A DNA stretch of 64,000 bases from Treponemataceae bacterium (GTDB lineage Bacteria; Spirochaetota; Spirochaetia; Treponematales; Rectinemataceae). The translations under genes were made by a program, and so were the position numbers. Under the pieces are notes generated by a model. That model did not search any database. It was not told the origin of the DNA and worked only from the letters and a program-made list of their open reading frames with translations. Shown here in pieces: positions 338 to 34,236 of this stretch. The DNA is taken from assembly GCA_963667725.2 (NCBI GenBank), contig CAXXHO010000001.1:1-64000 (forward strand). The letters are read 5' to 3'. Each line of letters begins with the position of its first letter. Position 1 is the first letter of the stretch.

Positions 338-500
338 GGTACGCTCCAATGTAGATTCTTCATCCCCGGCGCCGGAGGCGTCCTTCTAACATTAGCTTAA
401 CCCTTAACGCGTACATTGGCGCGGTTTGTGCTTACGAGCGAAGCGAGTTGCACAAACCGTGACAATAGCGTTATAGGGTTGAAGCAGGTGTTGGACGTCT

Positions 501-914
501 TCACCTCTGATTCGTTTTGATCTTCTCTTCAACAATTCTATAGATCTCTTCGTTCTTCTCTTTTCCTAACCCCAATAGTATCTTCTCTGATTTCCCTACT
601 ATCATAACATAAGGCTTCTCTTTCTTTATCTCAAACAATCGTACCTTTCCTAATTCCTTATACGTAAACATTCCTATATTCATAAACCCTAGATTTATTC
701 CATTCGTCTTCAAGCCCCACATTGGTATTGAATCTAGTTTTCTTATTTCTTCTATATCTTTATATTCTATTTCTGTCCCATATAATCCATTAATCTTAAT
801 AGTATCTTCTAAAGCATCTACAGTTATTCCTTTGCCAAGAAGTACTGAAGAAAGAATAATGAATGCGGTAATGACTAGGGCGAGTATAATAGACTGTGGA
901 TTGTTTTTCTTCAT
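501..914 (-). CDS. Membrane-anchored bacterial PH-domain protein (paralog 1 of 3)
   Basis: N-terminal TM segment, GLKTNGINLG...GMF motif; close paralogs at 7365 and 8059. Confidence 0.7.
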   Translation of the reverse strand: MKKNNPQSIILALVITAFIILSSVLLGKGITVDALEDTIKINGLYGTEIEYKDIEEIRKLDSIPMWGLKTNGINLGFMNIGMFTYKELGKVRLFEIKKEKPYVMIVGKSEKILLGLGKEKNEEIYRIVEEKIKTNQR

Positions 915-1126
915 AGGATATCAGCCTTACTTTTACTAGAATAATCAATATTATATATATTGAAGCAACGAATATGACTATCTTATTTGCGCGCGTAAAG
1001 CGCGTCCGTCCAACATTAGCTTAACCCTTAACGCCTGTTCCTGAGCGAAGCGAAGGATTGGCGTGGTTTTTGCGTGATTTTGTCGCAAAAACCATGACAA
1101 AAGGCGTTATAGGGTTGAAGCAGTTG

Positions 1127-1876
1127 TTAGATGCTCCCACTTTCCCAATACAGTATACCTTCTTCATTGATTTCTTTCTGTTTTTCTATTATGCCATCAG
1201 CATTTACAACAATTGCTCCACCAAAGAAACTATCTTTCTCATTGATATAGTTTGTCATCAATACTCTTGTTTTAAGCTTTTTTACTTGATCCAAATAGTA
1301 GGGCTTTTCTTCATTATCCCATAATTCTTGTGAGAACAATTCATTATCACTACTTCGAGCTATAGGAACAATAACAACATCAGGATTACTTTCTTTAACA
1401 GCAGTAATAAGTTTGTCATCAAATAGATCACCACACACCAAATAGCCGTATGAACAATTTTCTATACTAAATTTAGATACCTTGTTTCCTTCTCGATAAA
1501 TGCCTTTATCTGCATTCCTACCATGCCAACCTGGACTTTGCCTGCGATAATGTCCTATTACCTTTCCCAATGGACTAATACAGACTACTGAATCGTAAAT
1601 ATGTTTGTTATCTCTTTCAATAAACCCTAATGATACATAAACTCCTTTTCTACAAGCGATCTCTTTAATTTGCTGCAAGCAGGACGAATCTAATAAAACT
1701 GCATATTTGTAATCATGCTCAGGATTATCATCAGTAACAAATCCAGTTAAGCATGCTTCAGGGAATATTATGAACTTGGCACTGTTTTTAGCTGCACTAT
1801 CAATTTAGGAGATAATACTATCTATATTTCGTTGGACATCATCACAAAGGGTTGGCACTATTAATGCATGTTTCAT
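1127..1876 (-). pseudogene. Carbon-nitrogen hydrolase (nitrilase family) with an in-frame stop
   Basis: ATG at 1876 (MKHALIVP...), TAA at 1805-1807 (codon 24); the frame continues through IIFPEACLTG and LVCGD motifs. Confidence 0.8.
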
Positions 1877-2104
1877 TCATTCTTCCGCAGGATGCACCTA
1901 ACATTGGCTTAACCCTTAACGCGTACATTGGCGTGGTTTGTGCTTCGCGAACGGAGTGAGCTGCACAAACCGTGACAATAGCGTTATAGGGTTGAAGCAG
2001 GTGTTAGGCGCTTTTCTTTTCTATAACTATAGTTACTTACACTTTTCACTTTGCGGTAAAGAAAACTCTTGACTTTTCACTAATATTGTACATACTTTGT
2101 AGGC

Positions 2105-2404
2105 ATGAAGGACATCTCCTTCGTTTGGGACCCCAGAAAGAACCTCATCAATCAAACCAAACATGATGGTGTTGATTTTGATGAAGCTAAAACAGTCTTC
2201 TATGATGAATATGCTCGAGTGATTTATGACCCTGAGCATTCTGACGAAGAAGACCGTTTTATTATATTGGGCCTAAGTATCAAGCTTAGGCTTTTAGTCG
2301 TTTGCCATTGCTATCGCGAATCGGATTCCATCATCCGTTTGATTTCGGCAAGAAAAGCCACGAAGAAGGAGGAAACCTCCTATGAAGAATACCGAAATGC
2401 GTGA
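2105..2404 (+). CDS. brnT: BrnT family toxin
   Basis: FVWDPRKN...KHDGVDFDEA...EDRF...IRLISARKA motifs; cassette inverted, candidate own promoter TTGACT-N16-CATACT at 2069-2096. Confidence 0.92.
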   Translation: MKDISFVWDPRKNLINQTKHDGVDFDEAKTVFYDEYARVIYDPEHSDEEDRFIILGLSIKLRLLVVCHCYRESDSIIRLISARKATKKEETSYEEYRNA

Positions 2405-2606
2405 GAACTACGATTTCGCTAAATCGGTTAAGAACCCTTACCTTACGAGACTCAAGAAGTCTATTACGATTAGGCTTGATGAAGACACTATTTCATACTT
2501 TAAGGATTTGGCCAAAGAATCCGGCATACCCTATCAGACTTTGATCAATTATTTCTTATCTCAATGTGCTAAAGAGAAGAAGAAACCAGAAGTCATTTGG
2601 GGATAG
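2382..2606 (+). CDS. brnA: BrnA family antitoxin (alternative start 2397)
   Basis: RENYDF...KKSITIRLDEDTISYFK...GIPYQTLIN motif; overlaps brnT. Confidence 0.9.
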   Translation: MKNTEMRENYDFAKSVKNPYLTRLKKSITIRLDEDTISYFKDLAKESGIPYQTLINYFLSQCAKEKKKPEVIWG

Positions 2607-2829
2607 GCCGTAATCTACTCAAGATAATTGCTTTTAAGACTCAGAATAGATCAAATTCCTATGCGCGCGCGTTTAGCGCGTCCGCCTAACATTGGCTTAA
2701 CCCTTAACGCGTACATTGGCGCGGTTTGTGCCTACGAGCGAAGCGAGTTGCACAAACCGTGACAATAGCGTTATAGGGTTGAAGCAGGTGTTAGGTATCT
2801 TTTTTAATACTATTGTACCTTTATCAAAG

Positions 2830-3240
2830 TCAGAAATACCATGTCCCCAATATTTTATGAATAAAACGATTTTCGATTCCCTCATCATATATAGTACCAC
2901 TATATAGCAAATAATACATACCAGGTTGTGCTAGATATAACTCAATCCTTCCTCCACTTTTTAGTATTACAGAACCATATGAACAGTCTTGCGTTACGTC
3001 TTTATACGATGCGGTTGTTGAAACAGTGCCAGTCCACATTAGGCTGCGACCACAAAAATATATATTAGTGGTAATGCTATTATCTTCATTATTTTCTGAT
3101 ATCGCATTTGTATTTGGAGTAAGCCATATTGATTGTGGCCTTGAAACCTTCAGATTGGTATTATTATTTTCTAGACTGCAACTGTAGAATAGCATAAAAA
3201 ATAAAACACCAACTACTAAAGGCTTAACCACTCTTCTCAT
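2830..3240 (-). CDS. Hypothetical lipoprotein
   Basis: AGGAGG before ATG 3240; signal peptide ending FYSC. Confidence 0.65.
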   Translation of the reverse strand: MRRVVKPLVVGVLFFMLFYSCSLENNNTNLKVSRPQSIWLTPNTNAISENNEDNSITTNIYFCGRSLMWTGTVSTTASYKDVTQDCSYGSVILKSGGRIELYLAQPGMYYLLYSGTIYDEGIENRFIHKILGTWYF

Positions 3241-3559
3241 AAAAATCCTCCTTGAAGTCATAATTTGCTCTAAACTATTTATTTTCAAATTAATGCTTTT
3301 TACCAGTGTAATAATGCATAGTACTATTTACACTTATATTTATTTAAAACTATACCATTATATCTCAAGAACACCTATAGCTTAACTTTTTCTATAGATC
3401 ATTTTTTATCCGCGCCCGCAGGGTCTACCTAACATTGGCTTAACCTTTAAATCCGCGCCTGAGCTACTGCGAAGGCTTGGCGTGGTTTGTGCATTGTTGT
3501 TCCTGCACAAACCATGACAAAGGATTTACAAGGTTGAAGCAGGTGTTAGGTGTCTCGTT

Positions 3560-4213
3560 TCAATGATTAGCCTCAATCACTTTATTTAGTATTTCCCTGT
3601 CTTGATAAGTATTACTTAGTTCTTTTATTCTTTCTTTAACCATTCCATTGGTATCTTCATACTCTTCAAAACTATATACCTTGTTATTCCCTTTTGAGAA
3701 CAAAGTATAAATGTCTTCAGTATTCTCCAGTACCTTTAAAAAGTACCAATAATTCCTTCGTTTCAAGTAATGATAAAGCAAGTGCCCATTAGGATGTATT
3801 GAACCATCCATTACCATATACCGCCAAAGTTCAATCTTAAATCCTAACGGTAAGTCTTCTCTTATGAGATCTTCTTTATGAAAGCCTTTAATGACTTCTT
3901 TATATCGAGCTATCGCTTGATCAAACGCTGACTCTACATCACTAAGCACTTTCACTTTATCTTGTTCATACCACACTTTATTTGCTTTTCTAAAGTCGTC
4001 GACATCATTAAAAGGAACCTTATCTAGAATACTTTGAAGCTTATCTGATGAAAATGATATCCATCGCGTTATATGTGCAACAGCGTCTTTATAACTCCAA
4101 TCTTGATAAGAACTATCCTCAAGCTTTTCAGACTTACATGTTTCAATGAACTCTTTGATATTTCTACTAGTTTTATCGATCTCGACACTAATACTTTCAA
4201 CATCAAAAAGCAT
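3560..4213 (-). CDS. DinB/ClbS-DfsB-like four-helix-bundle protein
   Basis: WSYKDAVAHITRW motif and a later HxxxH. Confidence 0.65.
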   Translation of the reverse strand: MLFDVESISVEIDKTSRNIKEFIETCKSEKLEDSSYQDWSYKDAVAHITRWISFSSDKLQSILDKVPFNDVDDFRKANKVWYEQDKVKVLSDVESAFDQAIARYKEVIKGFHKEDLIREDLPLGFKIELWRYMVMDGSIHPNGHLLYHYLKRRNYWYFLKVLENTEDIYTLFSKGNNKVYSFEEYEDTNGMVKERIKELSNTYQDREILNKVIEANH

Positions 4214-4381
4214 GTGGCATCTCCCTATTTATCTGCGCGATAGCGTCCACCTAACATTGGCTTAACCCTTAACGCCTGCTCCTGAGCGAAGCGAAGGATT
4301 GGCATGGTTTTTGCGTCATCTTCTAGCAAAAACCATGACAAAAGGCGTTATAGGGTTGAAGCTTTTGTTATGTGTCTTTTA

Positions 4382-5690
4382 TGTACACATCAGGGACATC
4401 GTTTACAAAACCTCAAGGACATCGTTTACACATTAAACTATGCTTTTCCTAGGGGGAAAGCATATGCCTTGGAGGAATACAACGATTATGGACGAGAAAT
4501 ACTTCTTCATCAATGAGTACCTGGCTCACAGACATACAATAACAGAACTCTGTAAGCAGTTTGGAATATCCCGAACCCTGGGGTACAAATACATTGAACG
4601 CTTTAACCACATGGGTTTTACCGGGCTTAATGAGCTTTCAAGAAAGCCTAAATCATGCCCTACTAAAACACCCGTAAGAATTGCCAAGAACATAATTTCA
4701 ATACGAAACAAGCATCCTCGATACGGTGCTGATAAAATCAAAACCATACTCGAAAGGGATATGCCAGATATGCAGTGGCCATCTCAAACGACAATTCATA
4801 CAATCTTAAAAATCGAAGGGCTAATACCCGAGAGGAAAACCAACCGCCATATCTATCCCTGTAATCCAAAGTTTGACCCCAAAGAAATAAACGATATGTG
4901 GGGCATTGATTACAAGGGAAAAATGCGATTGATTAATGCAGTATATTCATATCCCCTTACTATTACCGATTCATTTTCCCGTTTTATTTTGGCTGCTGAT
5001 GCTCTTGCAAGTCCCACTACAGAAGCTACAAAAGCAGTATTTATAAGGGTTTTCGAGGACTTTGGCTTGCCGAATTATATTCACAGCGATAATGGAGTGC
5101 CTTTTGCAGGATCAACATCATTGGCTCGCTTATCAAGTCTCTCTGTATGGTTCATTGAACTTGGTATTATGCCTGTGTACTCGGATCCTGCTAAGCCCGG
5201 TCAAAATGGCAGACATGAACGAATGCATAAAGAATTAAAAGCAGAAACGGCAAGTCCATTACCAAGATCTCATAATGAGTTACAGAAACGCTTAAATGCT
5301 TTTATTAAAGAGTACAATGAATACCGTCCTCATCAAGCGCTTAATAATAACACACCAGCAAGCATCTATAAACGATCAGAACGTGTATATCCTCAAAGTA
5401 TTGAACCGTGGGATTATCCTGGAGCGTTCGAAGTTAAAAGAGTTCTGAAGAATGGTGCTATACGCTGGGGTAATCATAACTGGATAATGGTTGCTACACC
5501 GCTTATTGGCAAAGACATTGGTCTCGAAGAAATCAGCGATGGCCTTTTTCGCGTCTATTTTAGGTTCAAGCTCCTTGGATATCTTGACGCCAGAAAACTA
5601 AGAATACAAGATATACAAGGACGCTTGAAGCGACAATAAAAGTGTAAACGATGTCCTTGTAGTTTTGTAAACTATGTCCTAGTTAGTACA
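4382..5690 (+). mobile_element. IS481-family insertion sequence, copy 1 (1309 bp, target duplication TTTA)
   Basis: TGT...ACA ends, imperfect ~50-bp IRs with doubled GGACATCGTTTACA sub-repeats, 4-bp flanking duplication. Confidence 0.93.
4464..5639 (+). CDS. IS481-family DDE transposase
   Basis: MPW... N-terminal HTH; rve core WGIDYKG, HSDNGVPF, QNGRHERMH, YNEYRPHQAL. Confidence 0.93.
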   Translation: MPWRNTTIMDEKYFFINEYLAHRHTITELCKQFGISRTLGYKYIERFNHMGFTGLNELSRKPKSCPTKTPVRIAKNIISIRNKHPRYGADKIKTILERDMPDMQWPSQTTIHTILKIEGLIPERKTNRHIYPCNPKFDPKEINDMWGIDYKGKMRLINAVYSYPLTITDSFSRFILAADALASPTTEATKAVFIRVFEDFGLPNYIHSDNGVPFAGSTSLARLSSLSVWFIELGIMPVYSDPAKPGQNGRHERMHKELKAETASPLPRSHNELQKRLNAFIKEYNEYRPHQALNNNTPASIYKRSERVYPQSIEPWDYPGAFEVKRVLKNGAIRWGNHNWIMVATPLIGKDIGLEEISDGLFRVYFRFKLLGYLDARKLRIQDIQGRLKRQ

Positions 5691-5691
5691 T

Positions 5692-6273
5692 TTAAAAATA
5701 TTTTTCACCAATTTTTATAGTTTCATTATCACTATCAAATATTAATGTTACGTAAGTTTCTGTTTCATATGCTTTATTATTACTATTCTCAATTGCAGCA
5801 AAAGATATACTTTGAGGATAACTAATAACATCATCACTCAAGCCAAGCAAAGTGTCTTCGCCATATTTTAAATCCTTATAATCATATATAATATTATAGC
5901 TTTTATTATAGACATATTTATCTGTAACCAAGCCCCATATCTGCTTAACATTATTTTCCACTGAGTAAATATAATAGCATTCTACAACCTTTTTATTAAT
6001 CCTTTCATTTGGATCAAAATACTCTTTCCCCCCCAATTTTACTGCTATAAAAAATTCTCCATACTTTCTTATAAGTTCATCTTTATTTTTTTCTCTTAAT
6101 CCAAAATTGAATCTATATATAACGAGACCCTTCGGTTCTTCAAGACATCCAATGCTTTGTGGAAATAATTCAAATAGAATACATGTTAATAGTATAAGTA
6201 TAGCTATGAGTATTCTTCTCTTTATGCTATAAATATTCAATTTGATACCATTAATTTTCATATTATCATCCAC
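5692..6273 (-). CDS. Hypothetical membrane-anchored protein
   Basis: ORF fills the cassette; N-terminal hydrophobic segment. Confidence 0.7.
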   Translation of the reverse strand: MDDNMKINGIKLNIYSIKRRILIAILILLTCILFELFPQSIGCLEEPKGLVIYRFNFGLREKNKDELIRKYGEFFIAVKLGGKEYFDPNERINKKVVECYYIYSVENNVKQIWGLVTDKYVYNKSYNIIYDYKDLKYGEDTLLGLSDDVISYPQSISFAAIENSNNKAYETETYVTLIFDSDNETIKIGEKYF

Positions 6274-6442
6274 TTTAACATACTAATGTTCTCATCTACT
6301 GCCCGTAGGGTCCACATAACATTAGCTTAACCTTTAAATCCGCGCCTGAGCGGAGCGAAGGCTTGGCGTGGTTTGTGCATTGTTGTTCTTGCACAAACCA
6401 TGACAAAGGATTTATAAGGTTGAAGCAGTTGTTAGGCGTAAG

Positions 6443-7162
6443 TTACTTTCTAATACTACATTTACTAGTATTTTCATAAAATTGCATTGTATTTTCGTAC
6501 ATATCCTTTATATGATCACTACTTTCAATAGATACATTTTTCGCATAATCTTTATAAAGTAACTGAAAACCTAAAGGAAAAACACCAATCGTCCAATCTA
6601 TAGCATATTCAGCGTTAATAGCTTCTTTTTTTAATGGAATTTTGTACTTTGTTATCATTTTTGAATAATTTACTTCCCAAATTGGCTCTTGGCTAATTCT
6701 TTTTATTGCCATATCATCAAGAGCACCACCTGTCCAATTTTGATATTCTTGTAATTTATTAGCAATAACAATAGGTAATCCCCATAAAAGATTGTTTTCC
6801 ATATCATAACTTATTTCGCCATATGAAACTCCTACTCTAGCTTTCATATTCCCTTCATATAAAGAATAAAATATTAGATGTTGAATAAATTGAATCAATT
6901 CTACTATGTTCTTTTGCCTATCTTCTTTTGTAAAAATCAATATTGTATCGGAAAACCATATTAAGTTCAAATACTCGTTTTTTTTAAAATCATTTATTGT
7001 TGGTAAAGATTCATTATTAATTTTAATACCTAAGCTTAAAGCAAGTACTTTTTTAAACCATGAAATATGTTTACTTTCAATTTCCTCAAGGCTTTTTTCC
7101 TTTAGCAGATTTGAAAAGCCCATAACATCACAAACAGCTATCATTTGATTGCTCATCTTCAC
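6443..7162 (-). CDS. Class III nucleotidyl cyclase-like (adenylate/guanylate cyclase fold) protein
   Basis: CDVMGFS...FSDTILI...RVGVSYGEI...WGLPIVIANKLQE. Confidence 0.6.
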   Translation of the reverse strand: MKMSNQMIAVCDVMGFSNLLKEKSLEEIESKHISWFKKVLALSLGIKINNESLPTINDFKKNEYLNLIWFSDTILIFTKEDRQKNIVELIQFIQHLIFYSLYEGNMKARVGVSYGEISYDMENNLLWGLPIVIANKLQEYQNWTGGALDDMAIKRISQEPIWEVNYSKMITKYKIPLKKEAINAEYAIDWTIGVFPLGFQLLYKDYAKNVSIESSDHIKDMYENTMQFYENTSKCSIRK

Positions 7163-7364
7163 TACCTTTTTTGCGCCGAAGGCGTCCGCCTAACATTGGC
7201 TTAACCCTTAACGCGTACATTGGCGCGGTTTGTGCTTGCGAGCGAAGCGAGTTGCACAAACCGTGACAATAGCGTTATAGGGTTGAAGCAGGTGTTGGAC
7301 GATTCCCTTGTACTTAATACTTAACTTCACTTTTTGTTACTAGCTTGATCACCTTGAACTATCT

Positions 7365-7778
7365 TCACTTATTAGTATTTTTTATCTTCTCTTCAACAAT
7401 TCTATAGATCTCTTCGTTCTTCTCTTTTCCTAACCCAATTATTATCTTCTCTGTCTTTCCTACTATCATTACATAAGGCTTCTCTTTCTTTATCTCAAAC
7501 AATCGTACTTTTCCTAGGTCTTTATAAGTAAACATTCCTATATTTATAAACCCTAAGTTTATTCCATTCGTCTTCAAGCCCCATAATGGTATTGTATCTA
7601 GTTCTTTTATACCTTCTATATCTTTATATGCTATCTCCGTCCCATATAACCCATTAATCTTAAGTGTGTTTTCTGAAGCATCGACAGATATTCCTTTACT
7701 GAGGAAGAGAGAAGAAAGCATGATGATTGCTGTTATGACCAAAGCGAGTATTATGGACTGCAGATTGCTTTTCTTCAT
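7365..7778 (-). CDS. Bacterial PH-domain protein (paralog 2)
   Basis: Highly similar to 501-914. Confidence 0.7.
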   Translation of the reverse strand: MKKSNLQSIILALVITAIIMLSSLFLSKGISVDASENTLKINGLYGTEIAYKDIEGIKELDTIPLWGLKTNGINLGFINIGMFTYKDLGKVRLFEIKKEKPYVMIVGKTEKIIIGLGKEKNEEIYRIVEEKIKNTNK

Positions 7779-8058
7779 AGCATCAGCCTTTCTATTACTC
7801 AGAGCATTTAAATTTCGCAGATAAAAGCATTTGAATAGCCTATCTTCTTTTGCGCGCGCGGAGCGCGTCCGTCCAACATTAGCTTAACCCTTAACGCGTA
7901 CATTGGCGCGGTTTGTGCTTATGAGCGAAGCGAATTGCACAAACCGTGACAATAGCGTTATAGGGTTGAAGCAGGTGTTGGACGATTTCCTTTAAATAAA
8001 ATCACTAATCTGCTATCTGCCATCAACTTATTCATCTTTATAAAGTATCAGCCTATCT

Positions 8059-8472
8059 TCACCTATTAGTATTTCTTATCTTCTCTTCAACAATTCTATA
8101 GATCTCTTCGTTCTTCTCTCTTCCTAACCCTATTACTATCTTCTCTGTCTTTCCTACTATAATAACATAAGGCTTCTCTTTCTTGATCTCAAATAATCTT
8201 ACCTTTCCTAATTCCTTATACGTAAACATTCCTATATTCATAAACCCTAAGTTTATTCCATTCGTCTTTAGGCCCCAGATTGGTATCGTTTCAAGCTCTT
8301 GTACATCTTCTATATCTTTATATGCTATTTCAGTTCCATATAATCCATTAATCTTAAGAGTATTTTCTAAAGTCTCTACAGATATTCCTTTACTAAGAAA
8401 GATTGAAAAAAGCATAATGACTGCAGTTATTACTAACGCGAGTATAATAGAATGCAGATTGTTTTTCTTCAT
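8059..8472 (-). CDS. Bacterial PH-domain protein (paralog 3)
   Basis: Highly similar to 501-914. Confidence 0.7.
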   Translation of the reverse strand: MKKNNLHSIILALVITAVIMLFSIFLSKGISVETLENTLKINGLYGTEIAYKDIEDVQELETIPIWGLKTNGINLGFMNIGMFTYKELGKVRLFEIKKEKPYVIIVGKTEKIVIGLGREKNEEIYRIVEEKIRNTNR

Positions 8473-8677
8473 GGTATAAGCCTTACAATTACTCTGAATA
8501 TTTCGAATTTGCAGATGACAGTATCAGAATAGCCTATCTTTTTTGCGCGCGCGAAGCGCGTCCGTCCAACATTGGCTTAACCGGTAATTCCGCGCCCGAA
8601 GGGCTTGGCGCGCAGTTTGCTAACGAGCGCAGCGAGCGCAAACTGCGTGACAAAGGAATTATCCGGTTGAAGCAGTT

Positions 8678-9239
8678 GTTAGGTCAATTTTCGTTTTTTG
8701 CCTTAACACCTTTGCAGCTATCAAGATACATGCCATGGCAAAAGCAATACTTATGCTAAAGGCTCTGTCTTTCATCGTGCATAGAACATATTTCTTCAGA
8801 CATAAGCTTCTATTATCTTGATCTTCAATCTTGACCTATTTCTCTTTTCCACTGCTTCAATCTTTCTTAAACAATATTTACCTTTATTTTCTTCGTTTTT
8901 TGAAGCAAGAAATATTCTCTTCTCCGTATACTTTGTATAATGAAGAATACAAGAACAGATCGCAATCGTAAGCAAGCTTACATTTTATCTGTTCTTGTAT
9001 TCTTCAATAGTACATTGTGTATGGTTTGCCCATTTTTCTTGGATCAATGCTTTAAGAAAATATTCCAAAATTGTTCTTTCTGTAGAATTTAGACAGGATA
9101 CTATTCAGGATAATTGAAAGCCATACTAAGTTTGCCGTTGAAGTAAGCACCATGAAAGCTGGTATCAAGCACGGGATTATGATCTTCCATGCCAATCACA
9201 CGTTGCCGTAGTGCGCCGCGTCAGCGGCGTCGACCTAAC
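8678..9239 (-). repeat. 562-bp cassette without a long ORF, copy at array position 29
   Basis: Near-identical to four other cassettes; no ORF of 60 aa or more; internal 20-bp inverted repeat. Confidence 0.9.
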
Positions 9240-11294: not shown

Positions 11295-11389
11295 CTTTCT
11301 AAGTCTAACATTGGCTTAACCCTTAACGCGTACATTGGCGCGGTTTGTGCTTGCGAGCGAAGCGAGCTGCACAAACCGTGACAATAGCG

Positions 11390-24929: not shown

Positions 24930-25421
24930 TTACAAAATCTTCTCATACGCTACAAAGTCTGTTTCGTAGGCATGAACTAGACCTAAGTCTTTATACCCCA
25001 TTCTTCTATAAAGCCTGTTTGCAGCCTTGTTTGCATCGGCAGCCAAATGATGTGTTGCTTTATATCCTTTCTCTTTTGCTACAATACTAATACTCTTCAT
25101 CATCTGTTCTCCTATACCTTTGCCCTGATATTCAGGAGCGACACACAATCTTACAAGAAAACATGAACTCACTCTTTCCCAACCAAGATCTTTTATTTCT
25201 TCTGGTTCATCTTCAACAATGGATATTGAAGCTATTACTTTGCCCTGATCTTCAAGTACGTATAAACCTTTATTCTTAATGTCTTCTGCTATTATATCTA
25301 TATTTGGATAGTCTTCATCCCAATCTGAAGTACCATCAATCTTCCCCTTAACCTTTACAGCATCGAACATGCTATTGATGTAATTGATTTCTTCTGTTGA
25401 TGCTAATCTAAAACGCTGCAC
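24930..25421 (-). CDS. GNAT acetyltransferase
   Basis: Paralog of 12989-13480. Confidence 0.9.
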   Translation of the reverse strand: MQRFRLASTEEINYINSMFDAVKVKGKIDGTSDWDEDYPNIDIIAEDIKNKGLYVLEDQGKVIASISIVEDEPEEIKDLGWERVSSCFLVRLCVAPEYQGKGIGEQMMKSISIVAKEKGYKATHHLAADANKAANRLYRRMGYKDLGLVHAYETDFVAYEKIL

Positions 25422-25588
25422 AATTAATCCTTATATTGCCGTAATACTCGAGCATAACTCTTATTTCCTGCCCGGAGGGTCAATCTAACATTAGCTTAAC
25501 CCTTAACGCGTACATTGGCGCGGTTTGTGCTTGCGAGCGAAGCGAGTTGCACAAACCGTGACAATAGCGTTATAGGGTTGAAGCAGTT

Positions 25589-26150
25589 GTTAGGTCAATT
25601 TTCGTTTTTTGCCTTAACACCTTTGCAGCTATCAAGATACATGCCATGGCAAAAGCAATACTTACGCTAAAGGCTCTGTCTTTCATCGTGCATAGAACAT
25701 ATTTCTTCAGACATAGGCTTCTATTATCTTGATCTTCAATCTTTACCTATTTCTCTTTTCCACTGCTTCAATCTTTCTTAAACAATATTTACCTTTATTT
25801 TCTTCGTTTTTTGAAGCAAGAAATATTCTCTTCTCCGTATACTTTGTATAATGAAGAATACAAGAACAGATCGCAATCGTAAGCAAGCTTACATTTTATC
25901 TGTTCTTGTATTCTTCAATAGTACATTGTGTATGGTTTGCCCATTTTTCTTGGATCAATGCTTTAAGAAAATATTCCCAAATTGTTCTTTCTGTAGAATT
26001 TAGACAGGATACTATTCAGGATAATTGAAAGCCATACAAAGTTTGCCGTTGAAATAAGCACTATGAAAGCTGCTATCAAGCACGGGATTATGATCTTCCA
26101 TGCCAATCACACGTTGCCGTAGTGCACCGCGTCAGCGGCGTCGACCTAAC
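25589..26150 (-). repeat. 562-bp cassette without a long ORF, position 11
   Basis: Copy of 8678-9239, but attached to a different attC type. Confidence 0.9.
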
Positions 26151-26295
26151 ATTAGCTTAACCTTTAAATCCGCGCCTGAGCTACTGCGAAGGCTTGGCAT
26201 GGTTCTTGCATAAAGGAGCGCCGCCACGAAGTGGCGAAGCGACGTGCAAGAACCATGACAAAGGATTTATAAGGTTGAAGCGTTTGTTAGCTGTA

Positions 26296-27333
26296 TTATT
26301 CTTGAATATTAATTACAGTTACCATTCTGTTTAACAAATCACCATTTTTACCATTTCCTAATACAATTTGTTGATCAACATCGTATTCTGTCATATTAGG
26401 AAATAATTCAACAACATCTTTTGGTATCTCATAATTTGCGTAAGGATTAAGAAATATACCTAAACCATCTTCAAGTTCTTCTTGATACTCAGCTTTAGAA
26501 CAACTTTTAATAATTGGCTTAAGTCCGTACTTATTATACTTTGCATAAGAAAATATCATATCTCTATCATCATTATCTTTAATCATTGCTCGAACTTTCC
26601 CCATTGTTGCAACATTGGAAAATATTACTGCGCTGATTTCTGGCATCATATTTTCGCTAAAAAATCCTAAAGGAATGTCAGCGCCATTATCTTTTGTTAT
26701 ACTGCTTATGTATTCTTGTCCTAAATATATTCTTCTATTTTCACTTTCAATATCTTCATAGATTGTTCTTTTATAGCCATAAAGAACTTGTCCTATTGCC
26801 CTTTGGGTTTGTTCCCAGAAAAACGGTTGTTCAAAGGGAGCAACAGCAATGATAAATGGCTTCCTTTTAACTTGTGGACTATTACTATAATGCTCTTTAA
26901 ATTTTCTATACTTGCTAATTAAAGCATTTGCTAATCTAATTGTTGCAATTCTTACAACTTCTTCAATATCTACCTTTCCATCAAGAAATTTCTTATAATC
27001 TCTTTCCCATTCTGCTTTTTCATCTATTGCATTACTTGCAGTTACTGCTTCTATACAAATTTCATATGGCTTTTGAATAATAAAATCAGGATATTGATGG
27101 TCAAAGCTAATTGTAAATGACCATTTTTTCATTACATTGTATAGATACAATTCCCAAAATGTGGAATTGAAAGTTGTCTGGAATTCAATTCGTAGCTTTC
27201 CATCTCTATCAATAAACCCTTCGGTCCAACTAGATATATATTTTCTAGCTATATCACTTTTTTCTTCCAAGATATTTATAAAGTTTTTATGCATCTTTTC
27301 TTTAGGAACACATACTTCAAACAAGTCAATCAT
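26296..27333 (-). CDS. Hypothetical protein with a PD-(D/E)xK-like motif
   Basis: EFQTTFNSTFWELYL...PDFII...IEAVTA. Confidence 0.7.
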   Translation of the reverse strand: MIDLFEVCVPKEKMHKNFINILEEKSDIARKYISSWTEGFIDRDGKLRIEFQTTFNSTFWELYLYNVMKKWSFTISFDHQYPDFIIQKPYEICIEAVTASNAIDEKAEWERDYKKFLDGKVDIEEVVRIATIRLANALISKYRKFKEHYSNSPQVKRKPFIIAVAPFEQPFFWEQTQRAIGQVLYGYKRTIYEDIESENRRIYLGQEYISSITKDNGADIPLGFFSENMMPEISAVIFSNVATMGKVRAMIKDNDDRDMIFSYAKYNKYGLKPIIKSCSKAEYQEELEDGLGIFLNPYANYEIPKDVVELFPNMTEYDVDQQIVLGNGKNGDLLNRMVTVINIQE

Positions 27334-27590
27334 AATAGCATTTCCTCTGCCCGAAGGGTCCAGCTAACATTGGCTTAACCCTTAACGCGTACATTGGCGC
27401 GGTTTGTGCTTTGCGAACGCAGTGAGCTGCACAAACCGTGACAATAGCGTTATAGGGTTGAAGCAGGTGTTAGGCGTTTTTTCTTCCATACTTAACTCAA
27501 AAGTATATAAAATTCTTATTATTAATGACATTACTTTATATCCAATAACACAAATGTATCATAAGTTAATAATATTAATTAAGAATTATT

Positions 27591-27914
27591 TCAATAAAAC
27601 TCGATGTTAGTTTTCTCTAGATAATCAACCACTTTCCCTGTGTGCAACGCATAATCGATTTCACTTCTCGTTGAAGTGCCGATATATCCTCCAACGTTTA
27701 TTACGAATATTCCGTCTGACATATCTATCTTTCGCTTGTGCATATCATCAAGCATAATTTTTTGTTCTTTATTAATAACTTCATTATCATTATCAAAAAA
27801 ATCAACAGACAAAACAATTTTCCCTTCTAGCGTCAAACGTTTCTGTTGTTCTATAAAATGCTTACCAAACTTCATACTTCCACAAAGTGTTATTACCGCA
27901 TATTTACCAATCAT
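27591..27914 (-). CDS. Nucleoside 2-deoxyribosyltransferase/DUF4406-like small protein
   Basis: ITLCGSMKF...HKRKIDMSD...GGYIGTSTRSEIDYA. Confidence 0.65.
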   Translation of the reverse strand: MIGKYAVITLCGSMKFGKHFIEQQKRLTLEGKIVLSVDFFDNDNEVINKEQKIMLDDMHKRKIDMSDGIFVINVGGYIGTSTRSEIDYALHTGKVVDYLEKTNIEFY

Positions 27915-28521
27915 GTTTCCTTCTTACGTATGCTATTTTCAATCTTGCTATAGACCATTTTTTTCTCAATTTGATGCTTTTCAAGCTGATTTTAACACTC
28001 TAGCTTTCAAAATAATTCCAAAATTATCGACTTACTAAGTATATTTTTCTCTTCCTCAAGATTGTTCAGCTAATTTCAATCTTTACATTTTTCCTCGAAT
28101 TTTGCATACGACAATTTCAGAATGAAAAATACTAATTGCGCCCGCAGGGTCCGCCTAACATTAGCTTAACCCTTAACGCGTACATTGGCGCGGTTTGTGC
28201 TTGCGAGCGAAGCGAGTTGCACAAACCGTGACAATAGCGTTATAGGGTTGAAGCAGGTGTTAGGCGTTTCCCTTTATCCTAAATATGCTCTTTATATTTT
28301 TATCGGTATTTACTGTTTTAATTACATAGGCCTTCGATTAATTGCAACAACACTTACAAGCTATACAAATATTACTATACATAGCAGCACGCGCAGTGTA
28401 TCTTTTTAGCATCCATCTTGACCTATGCCGATCGAAGGACGGCGCCATGATCTAAACGGGCTTTAGGCTCTTCTGCAATCAAACTCACTAAGTGCTTGCA
28501 GGTGAGTACTACATCAACACA

Positions 28522-28884
28522 TTAGGGTGAGTAACTTATTTTAAAACCATATAAAAAGATTACCTGAAATTCTATATCTCTCTTAGAGGAAAGCACAACA
28601 GAAATTTCTTTTTCAGTGAGCCAGTTTACATCAATGATATTATCATATTTTGCAGTATAAAATGGTACTGTATTTCTCTTCAGTTTTAAATCAGTTCGTA
28701 ATAGATATAGTTTCACAATCTGGCTAGTTGCAGTTCCAGCCCCTGTAGAAACCTTTATAATCTTAAACATACCAGATGGAGAGAACTGTGTATCAATAAT
28801 ACTAGTCTCAACAACAGAACATCCACTAGTGATAATCAAGAATAGCATAAGTATTCTAATAACCACTTTATTTATGTTTTGCAT
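28522..28884 (-). CDS. Lipoprotein, DUF5412-like; candidate immunity protein
   Basis: TSGC lipobox, SPSG...GAGTATS, W at DVNWL; follows a toxin remnant. Confidence 0.6.
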   Translation of the reverse strand: MQNINKVVIRILMLFLIITSGCSVVETSIIDTQFSPSGMFKIIKVSTGAGTATSQIVKLYLLRTDLKLKRNTVPFYTAKYDNIIDVNWLTEKEISVVLSSKRDIEFQVIFLYGFKISYSP

Positions 28885-29049
28885 ATTAATTCCTTGTATT
28901 ATCCAATATGCATCTTAGGGGTCATTACCATAGGATAGATTTTTACTTAATGGTCCTCAATAAAAACTTTCACGTGTTGGATCTGCATCTACACTGGCCT
29001 AACCAGTTCCACGTAATAGAACCTATACTAGTATACAAAGAGTTGTATC
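28885..29049 (-). pseudogene. Decayed C-terminal fragment of a polymorphic toxin (Ntox44-like)
   Basis: Translates TLCILV*VLLRGTG*A...*GP...SYGNDP*DAYWIIQGIN. Confidence 0.6.
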
Positions 29050-29249
29050 TTTTATTAATTACAAGTTTAATACTTCTATAAAAAGCTTTATTAATATAAC
29101 TATAATCGTTTAATAATTATAGCGCGATAGCGCCCGCCTAACATTGGCTTAACCGGTAATTCCGCGCCCAAAGGGCTTGGCGCGCAGTTTGCTAACGAGC
29201 GCAGCGAGCGCAAACTGCGTGACAAAGGAATTATCCGGTTGAAGCAGTT

Positions 29250-29811
29250 GTTAGGTCAAACTTCGTTTTTTGCCTTAACACCTTTGCAGCTATCAAGATA
29301 CATGCCCTGGTAAAAGCAATACTTACGCTAAAGGCTCTGTCTTTCATCGTGCATAGAACATATTTCTTCAGACATAGGCTTCTATTATCTTGATCTTCAA
29401 TCTTTACCTATTTCTCTTTTCCACTGCTTCAATCTTTCTTAAACAATATTTACCTTTATTTTCTTCGTTTTTTGAAGCAAGAAATATTCTCTTCTCCGTA
29501 TACTTTGTATAATGAAGAATACAAGAACAGATCGCAATCGTAAGCAAGCTTACATTTTATCTGTTCTTGTATTCTTCAATAGTACATTGTGTATGGTTTG
29601 CCCATTTTTCTTGGATCAATGCTTTAAGAAAATATTCCCAAATTGTTCTTTATAAAGAATTTAGACAGGATACTATTCAGGATAATTGAAAGCCATACTA
29701 AGTTTGCCGTTGAAATAAGCACCATGAAAGCTGCTATCAAGCACGGGATTATGATCTTTTCTGCCAATCACACGTTGCCGTAGTGCGCCGCGCCAGCGGC
29801 GTCAACCTAAC
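29250..29811 (-). repeat. 562-bp cassette without a long ORF, position 7
   Basis: Copy of 8678-9239. Confidence 0.9.
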
Positions 29812-29925
29812 ATTAGCTTAACCCTTAACGCGTACATTGGCGCGGTTTGTGCTTGCGAGCGAAGCGAGTTGCACAAACCGTGACAATAGCGTTATAGGGT
29901 TGAAGCAGGTGTTAGCTTTCTTCTC

Positions 29926-30303
29926 CTATGGCTCAAACCTTTTGATCTCTATATTTGGTATATATTTATAATGCTTATCATTCGCAGTTAATAACGTCTC
30001 TCCCATCTGTACAATTGTAGCTGCTATCAATGCATCCCCAAGCATCATCGAATGACTCAATGAATACTCTTGTATATAGAATATGGCCCTTGATGAAATC
30101 TCGCGATCTATCTGTACTATTTCGGTTTCCCACCGCTGCATCTGTTTCTGAAATATTCGATACTCTTCTTTATTCTTCATCCCCTGCAATAGTTCCATAT
30201 ACGTAACAGCAGACATTTTAAAAGGAACAGAACTCTCGACTACTTTTTTAGCTTTTTCATTGCCACGTAAGTACCATATTAGGACATCAGTATCGATAAT
30301 CAA
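29926..30303 (-). CDS. vapC: VapC PIN-domain toxin
   Basis: IIDTDVLI...ELLQG...DALIAAT...LLTANDKHY. Confidence 0.92.
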   Translation of the reverse strand: MIIDTDVLIWYLRGNEKAKKVVESSVPFKMSAVTYMELLQGMKNKEEYRIFQKQMQRWETEIVQIDREISSRAIFYIQEYSLSHSMMLGDALIAATIVQMGETLLTANDKHYKYIPNIEIKRFEP

Positions 30304-30539
30304 AATGTCCTCCCTTTTCTTAACCCCCGTACAACATCTTCGACACTTTTATCTTCTTTATGTTCTTTCCACATTCCAAAGATACTTTCTTCGTTTTCTA
30401 CCATCTTTCGTCTCTTTTCCAAAGGTACAATCTTAGCTAATTCTTTCCCACGGAATGTAATAGTTACCTCTTGCCCGCCAACAACATGATCAATGATCTT
30501 ACCGGGTTGTATCCTTAACTCTTTAGTAGTCACTTTCAT
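30300..30539 (-). CDS. Phd/YefM family antitoxin
   Basis: VTTKELR...GQEVTITFRGKELAKIVP; ATGA overlap with vapC; operator-like palindrome TGTAGTGTA...TACACTACA at 30551-30580. Confidence 0.9.
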   Translation of the reverse strand: MKVTTKELRIQPGKIIDHVVGGQEVTITFRGKELAKIVPLEKRRKMVENEESIFGMWKEHKEDKSVEDVVRGLRKGRTF

Positions 30540-30736
30540 AATCAGCTCCTTGTAGTGTACACTCTACAGTATACACTACAAACCTATACAATGCAAGGTT
30601 ACTACTTTTCTTCCTGCGCGGGAGCGTCAAGCTAACATTGGCTTAACCCTTAACGCGTACATTGGCGCGGTTTGTGCTTGCGAGCGAAGCGAGTTGCACA
30701 AACCGTGACAATAGCGTTATAGGGTTGAAGCATGTG

Positions 30737-31393
30737 TTAGGTTTCTTCTTGCTTAACAATGGAATAATATTTTTCTAGTTTAACTTTTTGCATATTGTAT
30801 AAATTATTCATATACTTCACACTAAGCCATCCAAATATTATAACAGTAATTAATTCCATATAATATATGATATTTATTGAAGGCATGTTGATGTTTTTTA
30901 TTATATTCACAATCCCTAATACTATATTTACTATAAATAATGTATCATATAGTATCACAAAGATTACTAAATAAACATTTCTTTTCGGATTTACTTCGCT
31001 TGAATACTCTTTTAGCAAATCACCTAGAAATCTATATGGGTAAATCAAATTAGCTATAGGGGTTATCAGCGAAATAATAAAAAACTCAGGATAATATTGT
31101 GTCTTTACTAATAATGTTTTTTCTAAGTGATAATATGATAGATATATATATCGTAATCCATCTCTAATCATGAAAGCTGATGTAATAATTATCGTAAATA
31201 TTCCAATTAATAAGAAGACAGAATCACGAATACTATTGGCATCATGTATTTGATTAATGTTATCTGTAGCATTTCCAATAATTGATAAAATAGTTATTAA
31301 TGCTGATATACCAACAAGTAGTAAATAAGCATAATTTATTCTTTTTCGTATACGCCTTAACACTTCAAGTAGAATTATCATGTATTTCTCCAT
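30737..31393 (-). CDS. Membrane protein, DUF4328-like
   Basis: Four hydrophobic segments, PIANLIYPY motif. Confidence 0.6.
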   Translation of the reverse strand: MEKYMIILLEVLRRIRKRINYAYLLLVGISALITILSIIGNATDNINQIHDANSIRDSVFLLIGIFTIIITSAFMIRDGLRYIYLSYYHLEKTLLVKTQYYPEFFIISLITPIANLIYPYRFLGDLLKEYSSEVNPKRNVYLVIFVILYDTLFIVNIVLGIVNIIKNINMPSINIIYYMELITVIIFGWLSVKYMNNLYNMQKVKLEKYYSIVKQEET

Positions 31394-31714
31394 TTTTTAC
31401 TGATTACTATTATAAGAGCAGCTTCGCATTACCAGAAAACTATAATAAAACCTATCTTATTTGCGCCGAAGGCGTCAACCTAACATTAGCTTAACCCTTA
31501 ACGCGTACATTGGCGCGGTTTGTGCTTACGAGCGAAGCGAGTTGCACAAACCGTGACAATAGCGTTATAGGGTTGAAGCAGGTGTTAGGCAATTTTTTCA
31601 TTTATCAGCATTTACCCTATTTCCATACATATGGCATATTACACACTATCATAAAGCATTATTTATTTTTAATATAATATATTTCGTTATACTAAAACTT
31701 TTTAAAACAATACA

Positions 31715-32161
31715 TTAGGACTTCATAAGAACTAGATTCTTAATCCCATTAATATCGAATTCTTCTCTATACTTTTCTTCAGCTATTTCATGCTTTACTT
31801 CCAACTCTTCTTCAGGCATCTTCCTATACTCTTTTTCTCCAATCTCTTGAATAATGTCTCTTTGGCCTAACCTAAAAAGAAGTTCTTGCCAAAATGTTTC
31901 TTCAACAAAGTCATCAAAATCATCTCCAAATGCCTTTTCTGCAGCTTCTGTTAACTCATACTCATTTGTTGATTGATTGAATTCAATACCTCTAAAAGCC
32001 TTTGCCATCTTTGTAGAAAGTAATACTTTCTGAACAAGGCTATTTATAACTTTATCTTCAGCATCATCCTTGGGGACAACAATAAAAGTACCTGAGTACA
32101 ACAACTTAAGGAAAAGCCCAACCTCTTCTTTAGCGAAAGTAATGCTAATATCGTTTGCCAT
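31715..32161 (-). CDS. Hypothetical protein (paralog of 21180-21626)
   Basis: Near-identical duplicate. Confidence 0.8.
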   Translation of the reverse strand: MANDISITFAKEEVGLFLKLLYSGTFIVVPKDDAEDKVINSLVQKVLLSTKMAKAFRGIEFNQSTNEYELTEAAEKAFGDDFDDFVEETFWQELLFRLGQRDIIQEIGEKEYRKMPEEELEVKHEIAEEKYREEFDINGIKNLVLMKS

Positions 32162-32362
32162 TTCAATACTCCATTTGCAGTAATTATGATTGCGCGCGCG
32201 AAGCGCGTCTGCCTAACATTGGCTTAACCCTTAACGCGTACATTGGCGCGGTTTGTGCTTGCGCGCGATGCGAGCTGCACAAACCGTGACAATAGCGTTA
32301 TAGGGTTGAAGCAGGTGTTGGGCGTATTTTCTGATAAAAACATATAACTTATTTCACTTTGC

Positions 32363-32848
32363 CTAAGTTACTACCTTTAACTCTCTTTCTACATAAGAAT
32401 TGTACCCATTCTTATAATAAAAGCTTTTTGCCTTTTCATTAAAACTATACACTGGTATTTCTATACTACTAATATTCTTTATCTTTGCTTCTTCTTCTAT
32501 TAACTCAAGCATTTTCTTTCCTATACCATGATTCCTATATTCTTCTTTGATTATTAAATCTGTTAACATTATCATATCTCTTTCTTTTACAAATAATGAC
32601 TCTTCAATATTCTTATATCGTCCTTTCATATACCCAATGACTTTTTTATCAATAGTAACAACATAAAAGTAATCGAATTCACATATATCATTTTTGATTT
32701 CATCTAAATCTACTTTTTTCTCACTCGTAAATATATTTGGTAGCTTTACAGCATGAAGATTCATTAGTTCAAGATAAAGTGGTTCTATCTCTTTCGCATC
32801 ATCAGCTTCAGCTTTTCTAATTTGAATGTCTACTTCAGCCTTTGCCAT
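32363..32848 (-). CDS. GNAT acetyltransferase
   Basis: EEYRNHGIGKKML...NEKAKSFYYKNGY. Confidence 0.9.
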   Translation of the reverse strand: MAKAEVDIQIRKAEADDAKEIEPLYLELMNLHAVKLPNIFTSEKKVDLDEIKNDICEFDYFYVVTIDKKVIGYMKGRYKNIEESLFVKERDMIMLTDLIIKEEYRNHGIGKKMLELIEEEAKIKNISSIEIPVYSFNEKAKSFYYKNGYNSYVERELKVVT

Positions 32849-33081
32849 TACTATTCTTTGTCCCCCGCGCGCGTAAAGCGCGTCCGCCCAACATTAGCTT
32901 AACCCTTAACGCGTACATTGGCGCGGTTTGTGCTTACGAGCGAAGCGAGTTGCACAAACCGTGACAATAGCGTTATAGGGTTGAAGCAGGTGTTGGGCGT
33001 TCTTGCAATATTTCTTTGCCAATTAAAGCTTAATAATCAATTTGTCTTCTTATTGTAAGTATATTAAAACCATCTACTCTA

Positions 33082-33510
33082 TTACACGAATATTGAATAT
33101 CCCTTTGCAATAAATATCTTGCCGTTTAAAGAATAGTATTTCCAATTATCGTTTCCTGCAGAAGTTGATATAATTTGTAGAATAAATTGATCTTCAAACT
33201 CTATATCAATATCTCCTGTACTTTCTAGAATTTTACACTTTACTATCTTTAAACCTACTAATTCACTTAATGCTTTAATACCATCGAATTGTCTTTCTAA
33301 ATAAAATACTTTTCCATGATCTTCACTAGTTGAACAAAGGTTATCATCATCAATAAGTCTCCACAGTCCTAATATTTCAAGTCTTGAATTATCAACAAAT
33401 TGAATTTCCCATGTATTACAATTATCACATTTTACTCTACAAATAGTTGTAGCTTCAATGCTTTTTGAAATTTCTATATAAGCAGCTTCATCCCACATAT
33501 AATACCTCAA
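33082..33510 (-). CDS. Hypothetical protein
   Basis: ORF fills the cassette. Confidence 0.65.
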   Translation of the reverse strand: MRYYMWDEAAYIEISKSIEATTICRVKCDNCNTWEIQFVDNSRLEILGLWRLIDDDNLCSTSEDHGKVFYLERQFDGIKALSELVGLKIVKCKILESTGDIDIEFEDQFILQIISTSAGNDNWKYYSLNGKIFIAKGYSIFV

Positions 33511-33674
33511 TATATAATACTATCTCACATTTGAATAATTACTTAACGCCAAAGGCGTCCGCCCAACATTGGCTTAACCGGTAATTCCGCGCCCAAAGGG
33601 CTTGGCGCGCAGTTTGCTAACGAGCGCAGCGAGCGCAAACTGCGTGACAAAGGAATTATCCGGTTGAAGCAGTT

Positions 33675-34236
33675 GTTAGGTCAATCTTCGTTTTTTGCCT
33701 TAACACCTTTGCAGCTATCAAGCTATATGCCATGGCAAAAGCAATACTTACGCTAAAGGCTCTGTCTTTCATCGTGCATAGAACATATTTCTTCAGACAT
33801 AGGCTTCTATTATCTTGATCTTCAATCTTTACCTATTTCTCTTTTCCACTGCTTCAATCTTTCTTAAACAATATTTACCTTTATTTTCTTCGTTTTTTGA
33901 AGCAAGAAATATTCTCTTCTCCGTATACTTTGTATAATGAAGAATACAAGAACAGATCGCAATCGTAAGCAAGCTTACATTTTATCTGTTCTTGTATTCT
34001 TCAATAGTACATTGTGTATGGTTTGCCCATTTTTCTTGGATCAATGCTTTAAGAAAATATTCCCAAATTGTTCTTTCTATAGAATTTAGACAGGATACTA
34101 TTTAGGATGATTGAAAGCCATACAAAGTTTGCCGTTGAAATAAGCACTATGAAAGCTGGTATCAAGCACGGGATTATGATCTTCCATGCCAATCATACGT
34201 TGCCGTAGTGCGCCGCGTCAGCGGCGTCGACCTAAC
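33675..34236 (-). repeat. 562-bp cassette without a long ORF, first cassette at attI
   Basis: Copy of 8678-9239, directly abutting attI. Confidence 0.9.

Follow-up and report, generated by a model that had tools for sequence, protein, structure and literature searches.

A G+C hairpin in fixed register with the attC sites of spirochaete integrons

Introduction

Where does the recombination site of an integron cassette end? The question is raised by the first 64 kb of contig C1 (CAXXHO010000001.1, positions 1 to 64,000; this whole stretch is called the window below) of a Treponemataceae bacterium whose 4.2-Mb genome is assembled in 8 contigs. The window holds an integron integrase gene, intI, and an array of cassettes joined at attC sites; at the start of nearly every cassette, just outside attC, stands a small G+C hairpin. 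An earlier note on this DNA had drawn attention to the hairpin and held that the published attC model ends at R'. This agrees with the part consulted here of the IntegronFinder description, which gives the attC consensus as R-UCS-L (UCS, unpaired central spacer), with the variable terminal structure (VTS) as a gap (PMC4889954). The hairpin is a real, selected and lineage-wide element. Below we describe its position, pairing, strand and spread, and then weigh whether it belongs to the recombination site, to the RNA of the cassettes or to the way in which cassettes arose.

A hairpin in fixed register with the cassette junctions

The array has 39 junctions, one at attI and 38 at attC. At 35 of them, attI included, a structure of the form x9-A10-stem-loop-stem'-y begins 8 nucleotides (nt) after the G of GTT. 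It does not lie between R'' and R': it begins beyond the crossover, 8 nt past the G of R'. The hairpins of the window have stems of 3–6 base pairs (bp) of G+C and loops of 3–5 nt (Table 1), and three of the 35 deviate slightly, with GG for GA at junction 29142, a closing G.T at 33567 and one internal G.T at 26150. A full listing of the junctions thus gives the count that the earlier note had estimated (about 35 of 39 cassette starts, attI among them), and the four exceptions are the same, the note's coordinates being 6 lower than ours (GTT 24805, 14425, 11309 and 1902). The surroundings are very AT-rich, as had also been said (G+C content of the array 32–39%).

To control for chance we used a strict motif, that is, GA, a perfect stem, a loop of 3–5 nt and then C. 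The cassette strand of the 34.3-kb array contains 35 matches, 31 of which stand at the exact offset at the 38 attC sites and one at attI; two of the others are shifted readings of true junction hairpins and one is unrelated. A single match was found on the opposite strand, and 200 mononucleotide shuffles of the array gave a mean of 2.9 matches (maximum 9). At other GTT sites the strict motif was never found (0/601). In the whole 4.2-Mb genome, the occurrences of individual hairpin words fall after GTT-N5 in 50 of 52, 34 of 34, 18 of 18 and 35 of 54 cases. A 15-nt attC word has 229 matches on four contigs of this genome, a few of them by chance, and the hairpin, strictly defined, accompanies 135 of the 229.

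Covariation and the ninth pair of the R box

The earlier note had proposed a covariation check across spirochaete integrons. Thirteen genome sets, pooled, have the hairpin at 292 of 502 array sites (degenerate sites are counted in the total). Ninety-two distinct hairpins carry 32 distinct stems. At stem pair 2, for instance, the 92 hairpins show G-C in 56 cases, C-G in 16, A-T in 9, T-A in 9 and a non-standard combination in 2. Hairpins were selected for pairing, so the evidence of selection lies in the diversity of the stems and in the position control, not in the pairing itself.

In 280 of the 292 hairpin sites the base at position 9 forms a pair with the one that follows the stem (G-C 268, C-G 10, T-A 2). 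Position 10, which is A by the definition of a hairpin site, is thereby left as a one-base bulge. The base after position 9 is also A in 120 of 182 distinct hairpin-less starts. Together with the 32 stems and the exact register, the pairing of position 9 bears out the earlier description of an element whose stem varies while pairing, position and bulged A are kept.

The ninth position also separates two kinds of cassette. We define the own R box of a cassette as the run of perfect complementarity between its own start and the sequence that ends at its own R''; this run reaches at least 8 bp in 172 of 215 cassettes of the source genome. Among the 131 hairpin cassettes of this genome, it is exactly 8 bp in 111 and 9 bp in none; among the 84 hairpin-less cassettes, 50 have exactly 9 bp and 10 have 8 bp. 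The 12 other genome sets split in the same direction: of 138 hairpin cassettes, 89 have 8 bp and 2 have 9 bp, and of 85 hairpin-less ones, 26 have 9 bp and 14 have 8 bp. This split implies that the ninth pair is supplied either by the base before R'' or, in hairpin cassettes, by the closing C of the hairpin. When the circularised junction was folded for minimum energy, R box and hairpin were predicted to stay together in 100 of 111 bottom-strand folds and in 101 of 111 top-strand ones.

Presence of the hairpin tracks the class of the cassette's own attC (none of 2000 shuffles reaches the observed value) and is unrelated to the attC class of the upstream neighbour (P = 0.31). The association with the own class is compatible with a unit active in the circular cassette. 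On its 3' side the hairpin is followed by 8 A-rich nt, with at least five A in 98 of 256 distinct hairpins. The bases before R'' look purine-rich by eye, and both ends of the cassettes seem to be of conserved composition beyond attC.

Strand polarity of the loops

The bottom strand is the strand recombined by integron integrases, and the hairpin loops are polar with respect to it. Among 291 loops of 3–6 nt, 256 read T..C on the cassette strand, which is G..A on the bottom strand, and none reads G..A on the top strand. The loop-closing pair is C-G on the bottom strand in 287 of 292 hairpins, and loops of the GNA or GNNA type make up, on that strand, 190 of 207 triloops and 51 of 65 tetraloops (together 241 of 272). 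The pyrimidine loops do not follow from base composition, because purines otherwise prevail on the cassette strand. An internal control is given by the attC interiors, which are known to function as folded bottom strands: in 215 cassettes they contain 215 words of the bottom-strand type versus 11 of the top-strand type. In the cassette bodies the two types are balanced (135 versus 133). Bottom-strand loops of this type are known from mini-hairpin DNA: GCGNAGC/GCGNNAGC mini-hairpins are described, in the part of the review considered here, as nuclease-resistant and as melting at about 70–76 C (PMC13037366).

Taxonomic spread

Within the family, 21 of 69 genomes contain the attC word, and arrays from five of these have the same hairpin. 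More distant spirochaete integrons, with IntI 48–58% identical, also carry it, attI junctions included, and it recurs in spirochaete genomes with different attC types. In genomes of 2.8 Mb whose attC sites measure about 65 nt the stems are much more diverse, each with G-A in front and C behind. Of 401 genomes sampled across the phylum, 16 have an exact match to the commonest form preceded by GTT-N5, against 1 match for the reversed control pattern; most of the 16 belong to the same order, and four further families have single matches.

Among the loci examined, we did not find the hairpin outside Spirochaetota. At three attC junctions of a Nitrospira locus (L028) it is absent from all. In other phyla 1 of 106 predicted attC-like sites had an in-register hairpin, a figure that is indicative only, since it comes from a crude fold-based detector with both strands counted. 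Applied to 80 IntI loci, this detector reports palindromes on both strands, gives false positives in G+C-rich DNA and returned only 8 sites at spirochaete loci.

The integron and its cassettes

The intI gene was identified from its open reading frame (ORF) and the Pfam matches of its product (Phage_integrase, 2.1e-35; Phage_int_SAM_4, 8e-24; a weak HARP match, 0.0065). It lies on the same strand as the cassettes, an "inverted" layout that is known in Treponema. The array runs to the contig end at position 1, and its first cassette is joined at attI (34236). Sites of about 110 nt separate the cassettes and show what is expected of integron attC: AAC and GTT boxes that pair, a long variable stem, an unpaired spacer and an L box whose R''/L'' side has an extra base, extrahelical on the bottom strand (both read from the sequence), and intI and attI next to the array. 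The predicted fold is a long imperfect hairpin.

Table 1. Features of the integron in the window. Hairpins, read from the listing of all 39 junctions, are written on the cassette strand.
Feature	Position	Strand	Remark
intI, integron integrase	34405..35739	-	ORF and Pfam; same strand as cassettes
Region of intI with the N-terminal extension	35311..35739	-	about 110 amino acids
Cassette array	1..34236	-	attI junction and 38 attC; ends at contig end
brnT and brnA	2105..2606	+	against array direction
GA-CGCCGC-TGAC-GCGGCG-C	34210..34228	-	first cassette, at attI (GTT G 34236)
GA-CGCC-TTT-GGCG-T	33546..33559	-	closing G.T (GTT 33567)
GA-CGCGC-TTTAC-GCGCG-C	32867..32884	-	
GA-CGCGC-TTC-GCGCG-C	32194..32209	-	
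GA-CGCC-TTC-GGCG-C	31463..31476	-	
GA-CGC-TCCC-GCG-C	30616..30628	-	
GA-CGCCGC-TGGC-GCGGCG-C	29785..29803	-	
GG-CGC-TATC-GCG-C	29122..29134	-	G in place of bulged A (GTT 29142)
GA-CCC-TGC-GGG-C	28140..28151	-	
GA-CCC-TTC-GGG-C	27349..27360	-	
GA-CGCCGC-TGAC-GCGGTG-C	26124..26142	-	one G.T (GTT 26150)
GA-CCC-TCC-GGG-C	25470..25481	-	
GA-CGC-TTC-GCG-C	22581..22592	-	
GA-CGCGC-TTC-GCGCG-C	21660..21675	-	
GA-CGCGC-ATAT-GCGCG-C	20926..20942	-	
GA-CGCGC-TTGAC-GCGCG-C	19598..19615	-	
GA-CGC-TCCC-GCG-C	17461..17473	-	
GA-CGCCGC-TAGC-GCGGCG-C	16773..16791	-	
GA-GCGC-TCC-GCGC-C	16109..16122	-	stem pair 1 inverted, compensated
GA-CCC-TTC-GGG-C	15349..15360	-	
GA-CCC-TCC-GGG-C	13529..13540	-	
GA-CGC-TCCC-GCG-C	12844..12856	-	
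GA-CGCCGC-TAGC-GCGGCG-C	12145..12163	-	
GA-CGC-TCCC-GCG-C	10526..10538	-	
GA-CGC-TGC-GCG-C	9854..9865	-	
GA-CGCCGC-TGAC-GCGGCG-C	9213..9231	-	
GA-CGCGC-TTC-GCGCG-C	8547..8562	-	
GA-CGCGC-TCC-GCGCG-C	7854..7869	-	
GA-CGCC-TTC-GGCG-C	7173..7186	-	
GA-CCC-TAC-GGG-C	6301..6312	-	
GA-CGC-TATC-GCG-C	4235..4247	-	
GA-CCC-TGC-GGG-C	3414..3425	-	
GA-CGCGC-TAAAC-GCGCG-C	2665..2682	-	start of cassette with brnT, brnA on opposite strand
GA-CGCGC-TTTAC-GCGCG-C	989..1006	-	
GA-CGCC-TCC-GGCG-C	369..382	-	
Hairpin-less cassette start	24774..24805	-	own R box 9 bp
Hairpin-less cassette start	14394..14425	-	own R box 9 bp
Hairpin-less cassette start	11278..11309	-	own R box 9 bp
Cassette start with degenerate form C-A-TCC-TGC-GGA-A	1871..1902	-	

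One cassette start is present five times, first at attI (GTT 34236, 29811, 26150, 16799 and 9239). Its copies keep the stem, one of them with a G.T, and vary in the loop (TGAC, TGGC, TAGC); the loop differences are G/A transitions, or C/T on the bottom strand.

The array contrasts in G+C content with its flank (59–68%) and with the contigs overall (54–59%), and the break is sharp, the 2-kb bin with intI (34001–36000) standing at 53%. By this contrast the cassettes look foreign to the host. Matches to the attC word number 137 on contig C5 (on one strand, at about 400–550 kb), 38 on C1 and 30 on C7. A further 19 are scattered over C3 and mostly degenerate, with hairpins and R boxes often decayed too. 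The cassette pool of this genome is very large. In soil and sludge runs from two other studies we observed contigs 90–99% identical to single cassettes of the window (25000–34900), which suggests an environmental cassette pool that is shared, though the shares of matching words are small. Among the public runs, metatranscriptome contigs cover small shares of the stretch and four runs of unrecorded kind cover most of it.

A proposed role and its alternatives

The earlier note had offered three readings of the hairpin: an accessory element of the site, a 5' hairpin of cassette mRNAs and a footprint of cassette genesis. We favour the first, because the register to R' is exact, the closing pair replaces the ninth pair of the R box and the loops mark the bottom strand. 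Overall, we suggest that the hairpin is an accessory structural part of an extended attC, formed by the bottom strand as single-stranded DNA (ssDNA), and we give this reading about an even chance; an effect on recombination is something that we infer.

A possible course of events is as follows. In the excised circular cassette, the cassette's own start would come directly after its own attC. The R box would then be a perfect 8-bp stem (GTT and 5 nt), G9 would pair with the hairpin-closing C, the next base, a top-strand A and bottom-strand T, would be bulged, and a G+C stem of 3–7 bp would follow, capped on the bottom strand by a C-G-closed GNA or GNNA loop, the motif of mini-hairpin DNA. The helix of the hairpin may continue that of the R box by way of a strand switch and the bulge, stacking as an arm of a three-way junction. 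Such a hairpin would form at once and resist melting by single-strand-binding protein, and could fix the outer end and the register of the R box and present the bulged T. The long attC might then fold, or be recognised by the integrase, more readily, most plausibly at the integration step. In short, the hairpin probably helps the single-stranded site to fold or to be recognised.

A more specific proposal adds a fourth determinant, in spirochaete integrons, to the three structural ones of attC (extrahelical bases, unpaired spacer, variable stem). It would be a hyperstable mini-hairpin of the bottom strand that has a bulged T and is stacked on the R box of the circular cassette; it would resist single-strand-binding protein and set the efficiency or the orientation of capture. 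This we put forward tentatively, as possible and somewhat likelier to be wrong than right. If it is true, cassettes with and without the hairpin would form two classes of different mobility.

Several observations weigh against an accessory part of attC. Roughly a third to a half of the cassettes are without the hairpin, and these occur in multiple copies; on contig C5, at about 513–544 kb, 11 cassettes of 273–298 bp are all hairpin-less, with a 9-bp own R box in those inspected. Since hairpin-less cassettes are both common and multi-copy, the hairpin is not essential for mobility. The energy model predicts the G9-C pair across the bulge in none of 111 folds. The association of hairpin presence with the own attC class could arise from paralogy alone. 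Mispairs of the G.T and A.C kinds occur about once each, too few to confirm the strand independently. The R box is slightly richer in G+C in hairpin cassettes (2.57 versus 2.12 of 5), a trend opposite to that expected of a hairpin that compensates for weak R boxes, and we reject that idea. Finally, in 45 of 126 cassettes no more than 30 nt separate the hairpin from the first forward ORF start, and a Shine-Dalgarno-like word precedes this start in 62 of 126.

The last two counts would suit an RNA element, a stem-loop at the 5' end that either makes processed cassette mRNAs more stable or keeps the structured RNA of the upstream attC away from the ribosome-binding site. So would the place of the hairpin, at the 5' end of each cassette that carries one, and the forward direction of the longest ORF in 110 of 131 hairpin cassettes. 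However, the hairpin is fixed to R', not to the genes: its distance to the first forward ORF start has a median of 44 nt and varies between 7 and more than 100 nt. Of 37 cassettes with a reversed longest ORF, 20 carry it, against 110 of 169 with a forward one (Fisher test, P-value 0.26). In one of the 20, a BrnT toxin/BrnA antitoxin pair (Pfam, 3.8e-27 and 2.2e-09) is encoded on the opposite strand, and the canonical hairpin stands beyond the 3' end of the genes. G.U pairs are nearly absent (about 3 among the stem pairs of the 92 distinct hairpins), and we know of no stable RNA loop family that matches the sense-RNA loops U-N-C and U-NN-C. Moreover, the RNA version of the mini-hairpin is far weaker according to the part of the review used here, r(GCGAAAGC) melting at 39 C (PMC13037366). 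We consider a role in RNA unlikely, and the mRNA hairpin of the earlier note is disfavoured by the reversed-ORF cassettes and the variable distance to the start.

A relic of an ancestral attC-bearing module for cassette making, carried along without present function, would account for the contiguity of hairpin and attC in the circular cassette, for a presence that follows the own attC class and for the many mobile-looking cassettes without hairpin. As an origin of the element such a footprint of cassette genesis is possible. It leaves the maintained covariation unexplained: compensatory changes keep the pairing across 32 stem types and in several families of the phylum, the polarity of the loop and its C-G closing pair are kept, and the ninth-pair rule is hard to explain without structural selection. 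We regard a relic without function as distinctly unlikely.

By analogy, the hairpin might be a signal for single-strand initiation or pausing, which recruits primase or stalls synthesis of the bottom strand; it might thereby time the single-strandedness of attC, or permit complementary-strand synthesis on an excised single-stranded circle. It lies on the bottom strand, immediately 5' of attC, and shares its sequence class with hairpins of the phage G4 origin and of ssiA (CCGAAGG; primase RepB'), which the relevant part of the review describes as left uncovered by single-strand-binding protein (PMC13037366). This view is purely analogical, no flank is conserved beyond G-A and the A-rich tail, and the ninth-pair rule stays unexplained; we think it very improbable.

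We hold it to be just as improbable that the hairpin serves as an arm-type site, the specific ligand of the HARP-like domain at the N-terminus of these integrases. Domains of the HARP kind bind branched DNA, and hairpin and R box would form a junction. The IntI of the window has an N-terminal extension, the region of its weak HARP match, and about 110 extra N-terminal residues are found in all examined spirochaete IntI with hairpin arrays (frames of 431–440 amino acids) except that of genome G391. A motif around P-G-x-R/H-W-x-P-x-x-x-x-W is common to nine other spirochaete IntI and is also present in IntI of Nitrospira and Methylomirabilota. Yet co-distribution fails both ways: in G391, where intI is divergent from the cassettes (the classical layout; L104, G391:C1:1925323-1929261), the same hairpins stand at 22 of 42 sites although the N-terminus of the nearby IntI is different, and the Nitrospira locus L028 has the domain at hairpin-less junctions.

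Other candidates were rejected: a UNCG RNA tetraloop (T-N-C and the closing G) would leave 1–2 pairs in its register and break covarying ones; an intrinsic terminator would need a T tract, and at least five T in the next 8 nt follow 1 of 256 distinct hairpins, a terminator consensus scan flagging only 3 alternative pairings of one cassette family; and a REP-like dispersed repeat is at odds with hairpin words nearly confined, genome-wide, to cassette starts. Rfam at gathering scores gave no match in the window from 1 to 36000.

How attC folds on ssDNA against single-strand-binding protein, and how the integrase chooses its strand, are open mechanistic questions for integrons. Arrays in which some cassettes have a strand-polar extra helix and others lack it amount to a natural experiment. 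Annotation of cassette boundaries and attC models for spirochaete integrons, those of oral Treponema included, would gain a diagnostic feature, and should the hairpin tune capture, it would have a bearing on the movement of particular cassettes.

Relation to known systems

As an extra part of attC the hairpin is, in the literature searched here, so far undescribed. The part of the Treponema integron literature that we searched by text for hairpin, stem-loop or palindrome mentions no flanking hairpin. A literature search for attC triloops returned nothing, one for attC three-way junctions nothing on integron sites among the papers listed, and among those listed for integron mini-hairpins the subject is the apical loop only.

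Subterminal hairpins are a feature of IS200/IS605 and REP elements. With these, and with the hairpins of ssDNA origins (phage G4, ssiA/RepB'), the present hairpin would share that all are small ssDNA hairpins, some of them bulged, read by a protein on one strand only; unlike them, it shows no dispersal outside cassette starts and gives no sign of priming or of an HUH enzyme, though no search aimed at such an enzyme was made. At attI1, accessory integrase-binding repeats, DR1 and DR2, modulate recombination and are double-stranded sequence repeats. Both they and the hairpin are extra elements beside the core site, but the hairpin is defined by structure, belongs to a single strand and travels with each cassette.

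A closer parallel in shape is mini-hairpin DNA, d(GCGNAGC)/d(GCGNNAGC), which has the same loop, GNA or GNNA as read on the bottom strand, and the same C-G closing pair on a short stem of G+C, a likeness known here by sequence. In contrast to the molecules of Hirao and co-workers, as far as the review covers them in the part considered, the stems here are of 3–7 bp with a conserved bulge and closing pair, and they stand beside a recombination site, not at origins of replication or transcription (PMC13037366). Within integrons, attC itself is believed to contain, close to its apical loop, a nucleus that resembles a mini-hairpin and promotes recognition by IntI and displacement of single-strand-binding protein (PMC11641012). 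Nucleus and hairpin would be alike as very stable small hairpins and possible seeds for folding of the bottom strand, and words of this kind are also present in the attC interiors here; they differ in that the nucleus, as described there, is inside attC, at its tip, whereas the hairpin is outside, at the base, on the cassette side of the crossover.

The sites resemble canonical attC, R''-L''-VTS-L'-R' on a folded bottom strand: they have the boxes, the extra L-box base, the spacer, the variable stem and an array adjacent to intI, and each cassette start is complementary to its own R''. The canonical site as described, like its covariance model, ends at R' (PMC4889954), whereas here an extra, covarying, bulged helix abuts R' and gives the ninth pair.

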